From Escherichia phage JMPW1: DNA of 49,628 bases. The DNA lies in the sequence record NC_041874.1, one strand, 5' to 3'. Each line of letters opens with the position of its first letter. The stretch's first letter is position 1. A program made the translations under genes and the position numbers. Below are positions 4,186-46,988 of the stretch, piece by piece. The notes beneath the pieces are model-generated. The model was not told the DNA's origin. It ran no database searches and saw only the letters and a list, made by a program, of their open reading frames with translations.

Positions 4186-4392
4186 ATGGCTACACGACTA
4201 ACTCAGTGGCAGATTTACGACAAGGCCTCACGCCTTCGTGAATCGCTTCGCGGACTGACGCCGAATGACCGAATGGAGATTATCGGGCACGCATTGCACG
4301 AACTAACATCTCAGGACGTAATCTATCATTCATGCGGCAATAAATTCTGGAACGTGACATTCGAGGTAAAGAAAGATGAGCAAAACTCATAA
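4186..4392 (+). CDS. hypothetical early protein (68 aa)
   Basis: ATG after conserved leader AACCAATCAGAGGAATCAGCT. The GTG 4144 start in the ORF track lies inside the -10 element. Confidence 0.5.
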   Translation: MATRLTQWQIYDKASRLRESLRGLTPNDRMEIIGHALHELTSQDVIYHSCGNKFWNVTFEVKKDEQNS

Positions 4393-4663
4393 GTTAAAAA
4401 TCGCCCCGATACATTTCATTGGTGTAATGAACGGAACCAAAACGGCAGAGTTCCGCATCAATGACCGCAACTTCCAGGTTGGTGATATCCTTGAGCTACG
4501 CGAGTTCGATCGTGACGACTTTACCGGGTGGGAAGTTCACGCCAGGGTGTCCGATGTTACAGACGTGACGCCATACATCAATCGCGGTTATGACGAGCAA
4601 GAATGCGACTTCACGCAATACGTGATGTTATCAATCAAGCCTTACAGGAAGGTTAGACCATGA
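4376..4663 (+). CDS. DUF3850 / ASCH (PUA-like) domain protein
   Basis: HKLKIAPIHFIGVMNGTKTAEFRINDRNFQVGDILELREF matches my memory of the DUF3850 N-terminal signature. Confidence 0.6.
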   Translation: MSKTHKLKIAPIHFIGVMNGTKTAEFRINDRNFQVGDILELREFDRDDFTGWEVHARVSDVTDVTPYINRGYDEQECDFTQYVMLSIKPYRKVRP

Positions 4664-5462: not shown

Positions 5463-5665
5463 CAGCAGAAGATGCAGCACGCGACGCAGTGGAAGGAATG
5501 CGCCCAAATACCTCCAGAATAGCACACTACTACAAATCTGAGGTGTCGGCAGTGCAATTGGTCAACGAAATTTTAAGGCTACCACAAGTCGATTCAGCGC
5601 GCGTGGTGACGTGCTTAAAAAATTATTTTTGCATCGCTATTAAAACGAATAGCACGAATTGCTAA
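5447..5665 (+). CDS. hypothetical early protein (72 aa)
   Basis: ORF track; stop lies in palindrome 5650-5664. Confidence 0.45.
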   Translation: MATIITAEDAARDAVEGMRPNTSRIAHYYKSEVSAVQLVNEILRLPQVDSARVVTCLKNYFCIAIKTNSTNC

Positions 5666-5692
5666 AACCTATCAAGGGGAATGCGCTATGAT
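5650..5692 (+). promoter_or_regulatory. palindrome-promoter cassette
   Basis: TAGCAcgaatTGCTA, 22 nt, TATGAT 5687-5692; hairpin GGGAAT/ATTCCC. Confidence 0.5.
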
Positions 5693-5722
5693 TCCCATGC
5701 ACCAACAAACGAGGAAGCACTC

Positions 5723-6169
5723 ATGAAACACTTAATTTGCATTGAAACGCCTAACGACCAGTACACCCTGCACGGCATTGGAATGTTCAAAGGTCACTAC
5801 ATGACAGCAAGTATTCATGATTCGCGTTGCGTCAATGGCGATCTGATGATTACGTCAAAAGAAGTAACTCCGTACATTATGCAGAATCTTGGCAATAACG
5901 AATATATGGCCTACGGATGCAATGCGGTGTACAAGCATATCAAGATCAGAAAACGCGTTGTTCGCGCATTCAAGAAAATTGCAATGAAACAATGGAAGAT
6001 GAGCAAGAAAGATGCTGGACGCTGGGCGCGTAACGTTGCAGATTCATACTTCTACCGTAACGGTGAGTCCTGCCACTTCCTTATCGATGAACTTATGGAA
6101 AACTACGGCGGCGACTTCAGTCAGGGTGGCTTTGACGCTTGGGCTGACTACGAGGTCGATTACTGGTAA
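5723..6169 (+). CDS. hypothetical early protein (148 aa)
   Basis: ATG after ACGAGGAAGCACTC. The 5681 start in the ORF track overlaps the -10 hexamer TATGAT 5687-5692. Confidence 0.55.
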   Translation: MKHLICIETPNDQYTLHGIGMFKGHYMTASIHDSRCVNGDLMITSKEVTPYIMQNLGNNEYMAYGCNAVYKHIKIRKRVVRAFKKIAMKQWKMSKKDAGRWARNVADSYFYRNGESCHFLIDELMENYGGDFSQGGFDAWADYEVDYW

Positions 6170-6212
6170 TAGCACGAATTGCTAAAACTTGCTCAAGGGC
6201 ATTTGATAGAAT
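6170..6212 (+). promoter_or_regulatory. palindrome-promoter cassette
   Basis: TAGCAcgaatTGCTA, 22 nt, TGaTAGAAT 6207-6212; hairpin AAGGGCAT/ATGCCCTT. Confidence 0.6.
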
Positions 6213-6252
6213 GCCCTTCGTTGAGTTAAGCAACCAATCAGAGGAATAAATC

Positions 6253-6864
6253 ATGGATAAAATTACCATTTGGGGCCAGACAATCAACCTGTTTCTCGGC
6301 ACGCGCCGCGTAGCAATCTTTGACTTTGATGGAACACTTAGCGATGGATCTGGTCGACTTCACCTGCTACCTACAAAGGATTTGCACTTAACTGAAAGCT
6401 GGTCCGAGTTTAACCGCGCGGCAATATTTGACAACCCTATCCAAAGCACGATCGATGTGATGAACTCTATGTATGCCGCTGGTCATCATGTGATCATTTT
6501 AACCGGGCGAAGTGATGAGGTGCGTTACGCATCTGAGTTGTGGCTTAAGCATCACGGCGCTCGATATGATTACCTGATTATGCGACCATACACCGATAAC
6601 CGGAAAGACACAGTAATGAAAGAAGAGGCGGTGCGCGCGATCGGCATTGATAACATTCTGGCGGCCTGGGATGACTCACCGCAAATTATTCCATTATTCC
6701 GCTCACTTGGAATAACCACTTACGCTGTAGTTGACTATGGCGATAAAGTTCACGATCATTTAAAATCTCACGGGGTAGATGAGGTTTGCAATCATGAACC
6801 ATCTGAGCCGCTACCGCCATTTGGTGAGAAAATTTGCATTAAGTGCAAGGAGTTATTGAAGTGA
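6253..6864 (+). CDS. HAD-family polynucleotide 3'-phosphatase-like protein (T4 Pnkp C-terminal-domain type)
   Basis: DFDGTL motif I, ILTGR motif, RKDTVMKEEAV and WDDSPQIIPLFRSLGI. These resemble T4 Pnkp phosphatase-domain blocks (RKDDVVKEE, IDDRTQVVEMW) as I remember them. Confidence 0.75.
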   Translation: MDKITIWGQTINLFLGTRRVAIFDFDGTLSDGSGRLHLLPTKDLHLTESWSEFNRAAIFDNPIQSTIDVMNSMYAAGHHVIILTGRSDEVRYASELWLKHHGARYDYLIMRPYTDNRKDTVMKEEAVRAIGIDNILAAWDDSPQIIPLFRSLGITTYAVVDYGDKVHDHLKSHGVDEVCNHEPSEPLPPFGEKICIKCKELLK

Positions 6865-6971
6865 ACCTATACGAATTTATTGCAGCACATCCGGTACTAA
6901 CAGTTATCATTCTGTTAATCATAAACTCCACCATCATCAATGTGGCGAAATTATTTTTAGGGAGATACTGA
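6861..6971 (+). CDS. possible 36-aa membrane peptide
   Basis: GTGA overlap with upstream stop; MNLYEFIAAHPVLTVIILLIINSTIINVAKLFLGRY; its stop lies 1 nt before the next ATG. Confidence 0.3.
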   Translation: MNLYEFIAAHPVLTVIILLIINSTIINVAKLFLGRY

Positions 6972-6972
6972 C

Positions 6973-7545
6973 ATGAAAACAGCTATCATTTTAAACGGTG
7001 CGCCTGGCGCGGGAAAAGACACTATAGGGTGCATCCTGGCTGACACTTACGATCATGTAGCGCTACGCAGCTTTAAAGCTCCAATGTTTGAGATTGCCCG
7101 AGCAATCCTGGGTGAGACTAATTTTGAGTATTTCATGTTCTTGTATGAGGACCGTCGCTATAAAGAAGAGCCAGCATCAATCCTGAACGGTAAAAGCCCG
7201 CGCCAGTTTATGATCTGGATTAGCGAGGAGGTTATCAAGCCGCAGTTCGGAAATCGCTTCTTCGGTATGCGAGCGGAAAGCAAGGTGAAAGAGTCTCACT
7301 CCCTTTCGGTATTTACTGACGGTGGATTCAAAGACGAAATCTTGCAGATGATTGAAGGTGAAATCCAGGTCAAGCTATGTCGAATCCATCGCAACGGTTG
7401 CAACTTTGACAACGACAGTCGCGACTACATCTATCTTGACGATATGATCGGGGTCAACGGTTATCAGGAATGTGACTTCTTCTCTGTCGAAGGTCATCCA
7501 GAAATTACCGCTCAGCACATAGCCGCCACGTTCATCAACAAATAG
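6973..7545 (+). CDS. P-loop kinase of the phage dNMP-kinase family
   Basis: Walker A GAPGAGKDT; LNGKSP and SPRQFMIWISEE blocks resemble T4 gp1 dNMP kinase (GKDT, LNGKSP). Confidence 0.7.
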   Translation: MKTAIILNGAPGAGKDTIGCILADTYDHVALRSFKAPMFEIARAILGETNFEYFMFLYEDRRYKEEPASILNGKSPRQFMIWISEEVIKPQFGNRFFGMRAESKVKESHSLSVFTDGGFKDEILQMIEGEIQVKLCRIHRNGCNFDNDSRDYIYLDDMIGVNGYQECDFFSVEGHPEITAQHIAATFINK

Positions 7546-7585
7546 CACGAATTGCTAAAACGTCGGTGGGGTGACTTGATATAGT
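7543..7585 (+). promoter_or_regulatory. palindrome-promoter cassette
   Basis: TAGCAcgaatTGCTA, 22 nt, TGaTATAGT 7580-7585; imperfect hairpin GGGGTGAC/GTTACCTC. Confidence 0.6.
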
Positions 7586-7617
7586 TACCTCATCGACAAC
7601 GAAGAGAGAAAATCGAA

Positions 7618-7827
7618 ATGATGGTATCAACTGATAAGTTTTTCACTTGCACTAAAACTTCTGAAGTATTCGAACTGGTTCATACTGATAATGGTGACTT
7701 CATGCATGACGGTTGCGACGTTTTCATTGAAGTGAAAGAAAGCGACTATGACTATGGGGTTTATTATAACCCGGCAGTGAACACTCAGTTTTTTACACCG
7801 ATCGAAGAGGAAGGAGAAGAAGCATGA
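7618..7827 (+). CDS. hypothetical acidic protein (69 aa)
   Basis: Follows cassette 7543-7585; acidic C-terminus EEEGEEA. Confidence 0.5.
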   Translation: MMVSTDKFFTCTKTSEVFELVHTDNGDFMHDGCDVFIEVKESDYDYGVYYNPAVNTQFFTPIEEEGEEA

Positions 7828-8168
7828 TCACGATTAACCTGTCAGATAAACAAGCGCGTGAAATCCTCGATACTATCGGCGAACAGCTTCACGTAAAAGT
7901 CGCTACCGCTGAGATTCTTAACCAGATCGAAAGACAGCTAACCCCGGTGTCGACGAATCAGGCTGAGTTCTCAATCTGGAAAAGCGAGCGAATCCTGCCA
8001 AATATCATCAAGGCATGGAAGCGCAAGAATAAAAAAGAAATCAATGTTGATGACTTATTTTCTGATGAATTAAGTCCTTCAAAGGTTGCTCAATATCAGT
8101 TGCGATACATGGAATCAGTTTGCAATCAGGTTTTAAATGTCAACTTTTCATTCGGGAGTGGTAAATAA
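7824..8168 (+). CDS. hypothetical protein (114 aa)
   Basis: ATGA overlap with upstream gene. Confidence 0.5.
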   Translation: MITINLSDKQAREILDTIGEQLHVKVATAEILNQIERQLTPVSTNQAEFSIWKSERILPNIIKAWKRKNKKEINVDDLFSDELSPSKVAQYQLRYMESVCNQVLNVNFSFGSGK

Positions 8169-41183: not shown

Positions 41184-42335
41184 ATGTCACAAGCTAAAAT
41201 CACTACCGAGCAACTTGTCGAAGAGCGCATGAACGGCCTTACACTTCGCGAGATCGCGGAAAAGTACGGTATGCATATTCGAACTGTTGAGGCTCGACAC
41301 GCAAAATTGGCAAAAGAAGGCCACTTTCACGGCAATGAGCATGTTGCTAAAAACGTTCCTGAAGGCTTCATGGTAAAAGGCACATCAACAATGATTCGCG
41401 GTGATGGGACTGAGGTCGTGCGATGGGTTAAGACCGATCAGGACCGTGAGAAGATTGCAGCTATGATGGAAGCTGCACGCATTGCATTTTGTGAAGACTT
41501 GCCGCGAGCAAAGCCAACTGAGCTGCTCACATCGCAAGGTCTTACAACCTCTATTGGAAAGCTGGCACTATACCCGGTGTTCGATCTTCACATTGGCGCG
41601 CTTGCTCATAAGCATGAATGTGGAGAGAACTACTCTACCGACGTAGCGGAAAAAGTGCTTAGCGACTTCTTTAATTACGCGATCGATATTGCTCCGAACG
41701 CAGAGAAGGCCGTTCTTTTAATCGGCGGTGACTTCCTTCACTCGGACGGTCTTGATGCTGTTACCCCGGCAAGTGGTCACGTTCTGGATCAGGATTCACG
41801 ATATGCAAAATTGGTGCATGTAGCTATTAGATCTGTTCGTCGCGCTATCGACAAAATGCTACTGAAACACAAAGAAGTCGAGGTCCAGGTTATCGAAGGG
41901 AACCACGATCAGTCTGGGATGATTTGGCTGCGCGCTGCAATGTCGGCATATTATGAAGACGAGCCGCGAGTATTCGTTGACGTTAGTCCTATGATTCTGC
42001 ATAAGACTCGTTGGGGAAATACCTTGTTGGGATACACTCACGGGCACACTATGAAAAAGGCAGAGACTCGACTCGCAGCTATGGCAGCAGATTTCCGCGC
42101 AGATTTTGGTGAAAGCAAATACGTGTACACGCATAGCGGTCACTGGCATCACCAGACAATCACTGAGCACTCACTCGGTATTGATGAGGTTCACGGCCAG
42201 TTAGGCGCGAAAGACGCATACGCAGCACGAGGAGGGTGGCGCTCGTATCGCCAGGCGGCTGTAATTGTTTACGATAAGCAATTTGGGGAAATCGGTCGTT
42301 TCATCTATCGTCCAGAAATGACAGGATCGCACTAA
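41184..42335 (+). CDS. HTH domain fused to calcineurin-like metallophosphoesterase
   Basis: N-terminal LTLREIAEKYGMHIRTVEARH HTH; phosphoesterase motifs DLHIG, GGDFLH, EGNHD, GHTH, SGHWHH. Confidence 0.7.
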   Translation: MSQAKITTEQLVEERMNGLTLREIAEKYGMHIRTVEARHAKLAKEGHFHGNEHVAKNVPEGFMVKGTSTMIRGDGTEVVRWVKTDQDREKIAAMMEAARIAFCEDLPRAKPTELLTSQGLTTSIGKLALYPVFDLHIGALAHKHECGENYSTDVAEKVLSDFFNYAIDIAPNAEKAVLLIGGDFLHSDGLDAVTPASGHVLDQDSRYAKLVHVAIRSVRRAIDKMLLKHKEVEVQVIEGNHDQSGMIWLRAAMSAYYEDEPRVFVDVSPMILHKTRWGNTLLGYTHGHTMKKAETRLAAMAADFRADFGESKYVYTHSGHWHHQTITEHSLGIDEVHGQLGAKDAYAARGGWRSYRQAAVIVYDKQFGEIGRFIYRPEMTGSH

Positions 42336-46944: not shown

Positions 46945-46988
46945 AATATACCTTACCCCCTATTGTATGTCTTTAGCAATTCGTGCTA
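46945..46988 (-). promoter_or_regulatory. palindrome-promoter cassette
   Basis: Minus strand: TAGCAcgaatTGCTA, 23 nt, TATATT (46950-46945). Confidence 0.5.

Follow-up and report, generated by a model that had tools for sequence, protein, structure and literature searches.

Mammalian PNKP couples a HAD 3'-phosphatase to a P-loop kinase, and the same two kinds of enzyme are coupled as neighbouring genes in Escherichia phage JMPW1 (NC_041874.1). The phosphatase domain of T4 Pnkp/PseT (1ltq, 5uj0) and Capnocytophaga Pnkp1 (4xrp) share the Pfam family HAD_PNKP and the DxDGT motif with the JMPW1 phosphatase, and are its best PDB matches by both sequence and fold. However, the phage polypeptide lacks the kinase domain of T4 Pnkp and has no ligase partner, adds an insertion of ~13 residues and an optional Cys/His tail, and is accompanied in phage genomes by a gp1-like kinase and nucleotide-metabolism genes rather than by RNA ligases. 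The kinase also differs from that of mammalian PNKP, as it comes from another P-loop branch (the dNMP kinase/phosphomevalonate kinase group). A further parallel is found in rV5-like phages (Vequintavirus), in which a kinase of this subfamily (37% identical, with the invariant residues in common) lies between DNA-polymerase/methylase genes and those for ThyX, thymidylate synthase and RNR, and adjoins a HAD-superfamily phosphatase. There, the phosphatase is an NT5C-type deoxyribonucleotidase rather than a HAD_PNKP member and sits directly 3' of the kinase, so that the gene order is reversed. We propose that the JMPW1 cassette is probably a deoxynucleotide-precursor (salvage) module, a reading to which we assign a probability of roughly 55%.

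The cassette and its two enzymes

The window, that is, the whole stretch of 49,628 nucleotides analysed, is a near-complete Tunavirus (T1-like) genome, and its 6253-7545 region is 100% identical to phages IME167, phi2013 and vB_Henu5_2. On the plus strand, exactly where the original prediction placed them, are a stand-alone HAD-superfamily phosphatase of the Pnkp 3'-phosphatase type (6253-6864, 203 aa) and a P-loop kinase of the T4 gp1 dNMP-kinase superfamily (6973-7545, 190 aa). Judged by conservation, both are real genes rather than chance ORFs, since the kinase family comprises 5012 representative clusters (E <= 0.001) and the phosphatase has matches in 2445 phage records. Both genes already carry annotations in hundreds of related phages, the usual GenBank name of the phosphatase gene being 'polynucleotide kinase', and the pair has been discussed in the literature. 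Searching the literature, we came across no functional test of the phosphatase or the kinase; a paper on retron Eco2 matched through reagents and a host-range statement only. The absence of a ligase, also claimed at the outset, holds: an identical genome has none annotated, and no unassigned ligase-sized ORF is left, the sole unassigned ORF of >=250 aa in the window being the capsid cement protein. The genome contains no tRNA genes and no annotated dUTPase.

The cassette is bounded upstream by a conserved intergenic 18-nt box (AGCACGAATTGCTAAAAC; 6171-6188, plus strand) and downstream by the next copy of that box (7544-7561, plus strand). Nine copies occur in the window against 0.07 expected, and the cassette sits in a region whose small genes all have this box in front of them. 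A variable hairpin 3' of the box holds a -10-like hexamer, TAGAAT, 22 nt past TTGCTA; across the aligned copies this spacing is constant, and the hairpin stems vary in sequence with their complementarity kept. Box and hairpin together are a probable promoter or regulatory element. Scans of the cassette region for sigma-70 and terminator consensus sequences returned nothing better than shuffled controls.

The prediction had likened the first gene product to the C-terminal HAD phosphatase domain of T4 Pnkp and to no other part of it. In agreement with this, hhalign against a T4-like Pnkp (98.4%) aligned Pnkp residues 151-295 alone, and no P-loop or Pnk-type 5'-kinase domain was found in the 203 residues. 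The protein scores 60.2 bits against HAD_PNKP (PF25109; E 3e-16, profile positions 3-138 of 143), above the gathering threshold of 27.6 bits, matches PHROG 415 (E 3e-66) and retrieves Pnkp1 (4xrp, 6e-7) and T4 Pnkp (1ltq, 6e-4) from the PDB by sequence; NCBIfam gave nothing over its cut-offs for either phosphatase or kinase. The motifs quoted in the prediction are all present (DFDGTL, 24-29; RKDTVMKEE, 117-125; WDDSPQ, 139-144). Motif I reads as D24-F-D26-G-T28, a nucleophile of the DxDxT type, and further key residues are R35, R86, D115-N-R-K-D119, K123 and D140-D141. R213, D254, K258, D277 and D278 of T4 Pnkp align with R86, D119, K123, D140 and D141, and the catalytic positions are invariant or nearly so in a 24-sequence family alignment; on this comparison, the T4 catalytic residues within reach of the alignment are kept. 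Mutagenesis in the Shuman laboratory reportedly found R213, D254, D277 and D278 essential in T4 Pnkp. R35 is invariant and has the D+11 spacing of T4 R176; at this point, hhalign places an insertion and leaves the two arginines unpaired, and the family carries its ~13-residue insertion, with invariant residues, after motif I. Foldseek with the AF2 model (pLDDT 84) again led to the expected relatives, with T4 Pnkp and Pnkp1 occupying ranks 1-21 (E ~1e-7; TM up to 0.78, normalised to target) and AphA-type acid phosphatases following.

For the kinase, the claim that it is gp1-like and not Pnk-like is upheld by profile and fold comparison. GAPGAGKDT (9-17) and LNGKSP (71-76) are found as quoted, and LNGKSP occurs at residues 90-95 of T4 gp1. 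The kinase matches PHROG 139, 'deoxynucleoside monophosphate kinase' (2e-46, profile positions 82-260), to which T4 gp1 also belongs (1.8e-65, positions 83-261), and its homology and fold likeness to gp1 are full-length, extending beyond the P-loop, whereas no similarity to the T4 Pnk kinase domain was detectable beyond Walker A. Pfam holds no family for it. Searches of the PDB with the kinase sequence and two kinase profiles gave P-loop-level matches only (adenylate kinases, AAA ATPases) and no T4 gp1, so that profile-profile and fold comparison are needed to see the relationship. We regard the kinase as belonging, on its sequence features, to an uncharacterised subfamily of the gp1 superfamily, with the signature N8, G14-K15-D16, K35, K64-E65, R77, S84-E85, K89, D116-G-G-F119, E122, R140 and D148-S-R150. 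Only the P-loop G-K-D, E65, R77, D116, E122 and R140 are common to the subfamily and T4 gp1, whereas N8, K35, K64, S84-E85, K89, G118-F119 and D148-S-R150 are proper to the subfamily. Compared with T4 gp1 (1dek), the kinase has ~12% identity and no counterpart of the gp1 insertion (T4 residues ~96-131), and its 190 aa contrast with the 241-250 aa of T4 gp1 and T5 Dnk. T5 Dnk was considered as a characterised member of the subfamily and rejected, since only the N-terminal 50 columns of the subfamily profile align with it.

Two smaller features singled out in the original prediction proved real, but both are lineage-specific and therefore not core parts of the module. The first is the Cys-rich tail of the phosphatase (6784-6861, plus strand; residues 178-203), an optional stretch of 26 C-terminal residues with the pattern C179-N-H181...C195-I-K-C198 that constitutes a putative zinc knuckle or mini-ribbon; the AF2 model has low to moderate confidence over it. 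T1's own 176-aa phosphatase and most homologues lack the tail, the CxH...CxxC pattern reappears in divergent members of the family, and in P0049 the tail is a tandem duplication. Within Tunavirus, it behaves like a 78-nt indel immediately 5' of the start of the second feature, the hydrophobic micro-ORF between the two genes (6861-6971, plus strand; MNLYEFIAAHPVLTVIILLIINSTIINVAKLFLGRY). This micro-ORF runs from GTG at 6861 to TGA at 6971, with translational coupling on either side: the GTG overlaps the stop codon of the phosphatase gene (GTGA), an AAGGAG Shine-Dalgarno sequence lies 8 nt 5' of it, and the TGA lies 1 nt ahead of the kinase ATG. The ORF list also contains a 42-aa version from 6843, but 36 aa is the correct length because in tail-less relatives the equivalent of position 6861 is an ATG start. 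In its best 19-residue Kyte-Doolittle window, the peptide has a mean of 2.25, as would fit one transmembrane helix. Across 12 Tunavirus loci, it stays near-invariant and its codons differ synonymously. No PHROG matched it. Most genera outside Tunavirus lack the micro-ORF, and there the phosphatase and kinase genes overlap by 4 nt.

Linkage, fusions and neighbourhoods

The phosphatase and kinase have genuinely evolved as a unit. Of the 81 related loci, 75 have the phosphatase gene upstream of the kinase gene, with an ATGA overlap in at least 29, and three distinct phosphatase-kinase fusion proteins (37-74% identical), rare as they are, occur on several phage contigs. In these fusions, the phosphatase is N-terminal and the kinase C-terminal, the same domain order as in mammalian PNKP. 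We considered whether the fusions are frameshift artefacts of ATGA overlaps and rejected this on account of their long linkers, their shared FxGPELHG motif and the existence of three distinct proteins.

A third gene is frequently associated with the pair. The calcineurin-like metallophosphoesterase of 383 aa annotated as 'DNA repair exonuclease' (41184-42335, plus strand; PHROG 704, 2e-156), for which no sequence match was found in the PDB, is far from the pair in the JMPW1 genome but physically linked to it in other phages. The contiguous order exonuclease-phosphatase-kinase is present in 33 of the 81 related loci and likewise in Kagunavirus K1ind2, whose exonuclease is 45% identical, and a 44%-identical homologue lies directly 3' of the fusion genes. 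The same adjacency of metallophosphoesterase and pair has been described elsewhere (PMC13164509).

Stand-alone homologues of the phosphatase also occur in other settings. In Drulisvirus, one with 62% identity lies between endonuclease VII and dATP/dGTP diphosphohydrolase; in Pbunavirus, a homologue lies beside ThyX, a 3'-5' exonuclease and DNA polymerase; and in the T4-like phage Whisky, a stand-alone phosphatase is located inside the nrd cluster. The Whisky record contains a second match to the JMPW1 phosphatase elsewhere in the genome, presumably a T4-type Pnkp, in which case the stand-alone phosphatase would have a non-redundant role there. A 338-aa phosphatase fusion in Pbunavirus was also examined, and the idea that its C-terminal domain is MazG-like or dNTP-diphosphohydrolase-like was dropped, as a BLASTP comparison with the Drulisvirus enzyme gave no match and the Pfam search only a weak one, to DUF6378 (E 0.016).

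Candidate functions of the pair

The original prediction left two readings side by side, nucleotide salvage and a two-gene replacement of Pnkp. The former now has the better support, because of the nucleotide-metabolism neighbours in other phages and the two phosphatase matches of Whisky; the latter has less, though it gains from the linkage and the rare fusions. We infer both the substrates and the order of steps in the salvage scheme, as follows. A phage without DNA polymerase or nucleotide-synthesis genes would use the degraded host chromosome as a partial source for rebuilding its DNA, with the gp1-like kinase converting host-DNA-derived 5'-dNMPs into dNDPs and host Ndk converting these into dNTPs. 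The phosphatase would strip 3'-phosphates from 3'-P oligonucleotide ends, from 3'-dNMPs and from 3',5'-bisphosphates (pdNp to 5'-dNMP), and removal of the 3'-P would allow 3'-exonucleases, possibly including the linked metallophosphoesterase, to complete digestion, so that the products could enter the kinase step.

Several observations argue for salvage. By both structure and profile, the kinase is homologous along its whole length to T4 dNMP kinase and not to Pnk, and phosphatase-linked and unlinked kinases of the subfamily have the same invariant residues, from which the same chemistry is expected in both. An analogous kinase-plus-nucleotidase pair sits in the unambiguous nucleotide-metabolism cluster of rV5-like phages, and the close stand-alone phosphatase homologues of Drulisvirus, Whisky and Pbunavirus are found in nucleotide- or DNA-metabolism contexts. 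The frequent contiguity of the pair with a nuclease-like metallophosphoesterase, and a genome without ligase and tRNA genes, point in the same direction. The T4 Pnkp phosphatase itself was reportedly first described, by Becker and Hurwitz in 1967, as a 3'-deoxynucleotidase acting on 3'-dNMPs and 3'-P DNA, a description that also fits salvage. Moreover, T1-like phages have long been known to break down the host chromosome and recycle its nucleotides, as is reported for T1 and TLS, the genes responsible not having been identified (PMC11447400), and 'nucleotide supply' has been proposed independently for the pair (PMC13164509); both lend support to salvage. However, the nearest characterised relatives of the phosphatase, T4 Pnkp and Pnkp1, act on polynucleotide ends in RNA repair, and the tight coupling and rare fusions of phosphatase and P-loop kinase resemble the way in which Pnkp and mammalian PNKP are built. 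Salvage is further weakened in that phosphatase and NMP kinase would not act in strict succession unless pdNp or 3'-P ends are real intermediates, that the kinase subfamily shares only some signature positions with T4 gp1, and that the zinc-knuckle-like tail could be a nucleic-acid-binding element.

A rival reading is a two-gene end-healing system, a non-orthologous counterpart of Pnkp, which we consider unlikely. Here, the HAD enzyme would remove 3'-P or 2',3'>P, the gp1-like kinase would phosphorylate 5'-OH, and a host ligase (LigA for DNA nicks) would seal breaks made by host defence or by phage nucleases. Membership of the phosphatase in the Pnkp 3'-phosphatase family with T4 catalytic residues kept as far as the alignment reaches, its position upstream of the kinase with the recurrent ATGA overlaps, the three fusions in PNKP order and the link to a metallophosphoesterase all speak for such a system, and bacterial Pnkp/Hen1 repair enzymes use phosphoesterases of the metallophosphoesterase class. 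On the other hand, similarity of the kinase to Pnk-type kinases ends at the P-loop, every one of its best structural matches has a phosphate group or a small molecule as acceptor, and partnerless kinases within nucleotide-metabolism clusters have the same signature residues. Neither a phage ligase nor tRNA genes are present, and RtcB, the RNA repair ligase of E. coli, takes unhealed ends as its substrates (3'-P/2',3'>P and 5'-OH); RNA end healing would therefore not feed RtcB and would be pointless without an Rnl-type ligase, so that only healing of DNA nicks followed by LigA makes sense. Whisky, in addition, holds the stand-alone phosphatase besides a presumed T4-type Pnkp, and the T1-like phage Rtp has been termed 'RNA repair-deficient' (PMC2610378). 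The most far-reaching form of this idea, which we rate as rather improbable, is an unrecognised and widespread ligase-less machine, joined in many phages by the metallophosphoesterase, in which a dNMP-kinase fold would serve as polynucleotide 5'-kinase, 3'-P/5'-OH breaks made by host defence nucleases would be repaired and the zinc-knuckle tail would aid nucleic-acid binding.

Nucleotide-pool editing, similarly doubtful, overlaps with salvage and differs from it solely in the phosphatase substrate: the kinase would advance canonical dNMPs, and the phosphatase would be a mononucleotidase destroying unwanted monophosphates (such as dUMP, ribo-NMPs or 3'-NMPs), in analogy to the rV5-like kinase plus NT5C pair or to bifunctional PFK2/FBPase2. 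The pairing of the kinase with an NT5C-like nucleotidase in rV5-like phages and the lack of an annotated dUTPase are in keeping with editing, as is the ~13-residue insertion with an extra helix after motif I, a possible small cap typical of small-molecule HAD enzymes. The phosphatase also matches Pfam Acid_phosphat_B (1.3e-5), and AphA is its next structural match after Pnkp; however, that Pfam score of 25.3 bits is below the cut-off of 27, whereas HAD_PNKP is far over its own. Counter-defence against nucleotide-based immunity, for instance by replenishing dNTP pools that dCTP deaminase or dGTPase defences have drained or by dephosphorylating a 3'-phosphorylated signalling or toxic nucleotide, is very improbable, as the small-gene setting with its repeated box and the variable accessories (tail, micro-ORF, HNH insertion) are offset by high conservation of the pair across hosts, unlike typical anti-defence genes, and by our finding no literature or homology link to anti-defence proteins.

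Were end healing true after all, phages would possess a second, non-orthologous route of nucleic-acid end healing. Independently of function, the annotation can be corrected, as the protein named 'polynucleotide kinase' in Drexlerviridae and several further groups of phages lacks a kinase domain, and its conserved partner comes from a gp1-like kinase subfamily of ~5000 representative clusters. On the salvage reading, which we favour, the cassette and the linked metallophosphoesterase are a concrete, testable candidate for the downstream part of the pathway by which T1-like phages reuse host DNA.

Identity of the phosphatase and the kinase

The window (49.6 kb) covers practically a complete phage genome. 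Over 5600-7900 it matches Enterobacteria phage vB_EcoS_IME167, Escherichia phage phi2013 and vB_Henu5_2 at 100% identity, and many other Tunavirus (T1-like, Drexlerviridae) genomes at 91-95%. Both genes are already annotated across hundreds of genomes, and both proteins are members of known families. The phosphatase gene (6253-6864, +; 203 aa) is usually named 'polynucleotide kinase' or '3'-phosphatase, 5'-polynucleotide kinase', and the kinase gene (6973-7545, +; 190 aa) 'hypothetical protein', 'P-loop NTPase' or 'deoxynucleoside monophosphate kinase'. On re-reading the sequence, the ORFs, coordinates and motifs quoted in the original prediction were all correct.

The phosphatase matches Pfam HAD_PNKP (60.2 bits, cut-off 27.6) and PHROG 415 (3e-66), and, of the proteins with solved structures, Pnkp1 and T4 Pnkp are closest to it in sequence. 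R86, D119, K123 and D140-D141 align with T4 R213, D254, K258 and D277-D278, and it carries the nucleophile motif D24-x-D26-G-T, which does not vary within the family. The suggestion that it resembles the T4 Pnkp phosphatase domain only was borne out by profile comparison with a T4-like Pnkp (98.4% probability, residues 151-295 alone). At the level of the fold, the AlphaFold model (pLDDT 84) matched the T4 Pnkp phosphatase and Pnkp1 best, ahead of AphA-type nucleotidases. Compared with the T4 domain, the family has an insertion of ~13 residues after motif I (invariant R35, P40, H45, T47, S49, W50 and F53) and, in a minority of members, a C-terminal CxH...CxxC tail. This Cys-rich tail, noted earlier as an extra feature, is a real but optional module, since it acts as a 78-nt indel within Tunavirus, is absent from T1's own phosphatase (176 aa), and recurs in divergent homologues, in one of which it is duplicated. 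Some homologues of 236-264 aa (P0108, P0111 and P0114-P0120) have another kind of C-terminal extension, 55-60 residues long (…VGSKDSLVN.SF.RG..YDV…DDSGCAWSF.H.DGDFVNA), in one case after a CxxC tail; this is a further optional accessory domain. In the Shigella phage phiL (PP134913.1; L002 3653-4467), an in-frame stop lies within motif I (DFD*TL) of the phosphatase gene, and a ~200-bp insertion with a 67-aa ORF is located close upstream; if this is no sequencing error, the phosphatase would be dispensable for propagation.

For the kinase, the Pfam search returned no family and the PDB searches no match at sequence level. It does match PHROG 139 (2e-46), in the same profile region as T4 gp1 (1.8e-65). 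A search of 1.84 billion representatives yielded 5012 clusters (E <= 0.001), almost all with proteins of ~190 aa, and a 66-sequence profile built from it aligned with T4 gp1 over the full length (94.7% probability, E 6e-8, 175 columns), gp1 residues ~96-131 forming an insertion relative to the profile. Against a T4-like Pnkp, the same profile aligned over a 25-column P-loop and nothing further, so that assignment to the gp1 dNMP-kinase family rather than to Pnk was right. Within this family, the kinase represents a distinct subfamily with its own invariant signature, to whose profile T5 Dnk aligns at the N-terminus only.

Linkage and cassette layout

The phosphatase and the kinase form a unit. 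Among 81 related loci, each containing the kinase, the phosphatase lies upstream on the same strand in 75: the genes overlap by 4 nt (ATGA) in 29 loci, and in three more where the ORF caller chose an earlier kinase start; a gap of 107-108 nt separates them in 14, including the window; and 0.4-2 kb of small ORFs or an HNH homing endonuclease intervene in the remainder. Adjacency extends to more distant groups (30-48% identity), among them Kagunavirus and 50-kb Yersinia phages. Phage contigs also encode three distinct fusion proteins with the phosphatase at the N-terminus and the kinase at the C-terminus (403, 413 and 461 aa; 37-74% identical); frameshift artefacts were rejected as their origin because all three have a common linker motif. 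The metallophosphoesterase annotated as 'DNA repair exonuclease' (41184-42335, +; 383 aa, PHROG 704) is the third gene of this unit: it lies directly upstream of the pair in 33/81 loci, and also in Kagunavirus, while immediately after the fusion genes comes a homologue with 44% identity. This adjacency has also been reported elsewhere (PMC13164509).

The predicted 36-aa hydrophobic micro-ORF between the two genes is present, starting at GTG 6861, which overlaps the phosphatase stop (GTGA) and has AAGGAG 8 nt upstream, and ending at TGA 6969-6971, with the kinase ATG one base further on; by this layout, translation of the three genes is coupled. The micro-ORF occurs in all but one of the loci with the 107-108-nt gap and is restricted to Tunavirus, and is therefore no core component. 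In some Tunavirus genomes, a 164-aa HNH-type homing endonuclease takes its place (5465-5959 in L004, a T1-like IMG/VR contig; also L006 and L007), and L039 combines a degraded endonuclease copy (5780-6004) with a truncated kinase. Other Drexlerviridae genera carry small ORFs in this interval, including a recurrent, conserved ~60-aa membrane protein (…LYVCG.FLMRALLK…D.DK…FKW; L019 5422-5604, L020 5234-5452, L042 5606-5791, L045 5424-5609, L030 1416-1694) with no obvious similarity to the micro-ORF.

Exact copies of an 18-nt box, AGCACGAATTGCTAAAAC, flank the cassette at 6171 and 7544 (both +). The box is present nine times in the window (0.07 expected) and always intergenic: the other copies lie at 1796, 3378, 4104, 5651, 35266 and 40340 (+) and at 46970 (-). 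At a constant 22 nt past its TTGCTA comes a -10-like hexamer (TATAGT, TATAAT or TAGAAT, in many copies after TG), which is enclosed in a hairpin; the stem varies in sequence among copies while complementarity is kept. Box and hairpin resemble a promoter or regulatory unit specific to the phage, splitting the small-gene region into cassettes. Further upstream in this region, 4376-4663 (+) encodes a 95-aa DUF3850 domain protein (E 3e-16), called 'RNA-binding protein' in identical genomes.

Gene contexts and the case for nucleotide salvage

On gene context, we put the probability that the pair serves nucleotide salvage at roughly 55%. From the fragments of degraded host DNA (3'-P ends, 3'-dNMP and pdNp), the phosphatase would strip 3'-phosphates, and the kinase would turn the 5'-dNMPs left by this step into dNDPs. 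Several neighbourhoods of either gene count towards nucleotide metabolism. The subfamily's kinase in rV5-like phages, which has the same invariant residues, clusters with ThyX, thymidylate synthase and RNR, and is directly followed by an NT5C-type HAD deoxyribonucleotidase gene. The stand-alone phosphatase of Drulisvirus (62% identical) is flanked by endonuclease VII and a dATP/dGTP diphosphohydrolase, that of the T4-like phage Whisky lies within an nrd cluster, and a phosphatase fusion in Pbunavirus sits between ThyX and exonuclease and polymerase genes. The JMPW1 genome itself, by annotation and ORF check, lacks tRNAs, a DNA polymerase, a ligase and any further nucleotide-metabolism gene, which was counted on the same side, as was the reported degradation of host DNA and reuse of its nucleotides by T1 and TLS (PMC11447400).

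In Escherichia phage APECc02 (L086 2992-4193), the kinase overlaps the NT5C-type 5'(3')-deoxyribonucleotidase, with ThyX, thymidylate synthase and RNR just downstream; the rV5-like deoxyribonucleotidase matches PF06941 (E 4e-6) and PHROG 420 ('unknown function'). Whisky contains a second match to the phosphatase, presumably its T4-type Pnkp. The Pbunavirus 'polynucleotide kinase/phosphorylase' (Pseudomonas phage SN, L092 2477-3493; 338 aa) joins a HAD_PNKP domain through a low-complexity linker to a C-terminal helical domain of ~100 aa, which has no P-loop and, as its sole Pfam match, a weak DUF6378 (E 0.016); the protein has no kinase domain.

Healing of DNA or RNA ends by the two enzymes, the other reading first offered, is unlikely, although the closest characterised phosphatase relatives repair RNA ends and a 3'-phosphatase coupled or fused to a P-loop kinase mimics Pnkp and PNKP. 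RNA repair specifically is disfavoured, since the genome has no Rnl-type ligase (the predicted lack of any ligase held for both the annotation and the unassigned ORFs) and the substrates of E. coli RtcB are unhealed ends. Specialists have, moreover, called one T1-like phage RNA-repair-deficient (PMC2610378). These points, with the contexts, lead us to prefer salvage. Pool editing through opposed kinase and phosphatase activities is less probable still, and counter-defence against nucleotide-based immunity is improbable.

The pair and a 'nucleotide supply' hypothesis for it have already been described in two papers of recent date (PMC11447400, PMC13164509). Our work adds points of which none is very surprising for a phage specialist: the 'polynucleotide kinase' is demonstrated to be phosphatase-only, the kinase is placed structurally beside gp1, and the linkage of the pair is quantified, together with its fusions, its three-gene association and its contexts across lineages.
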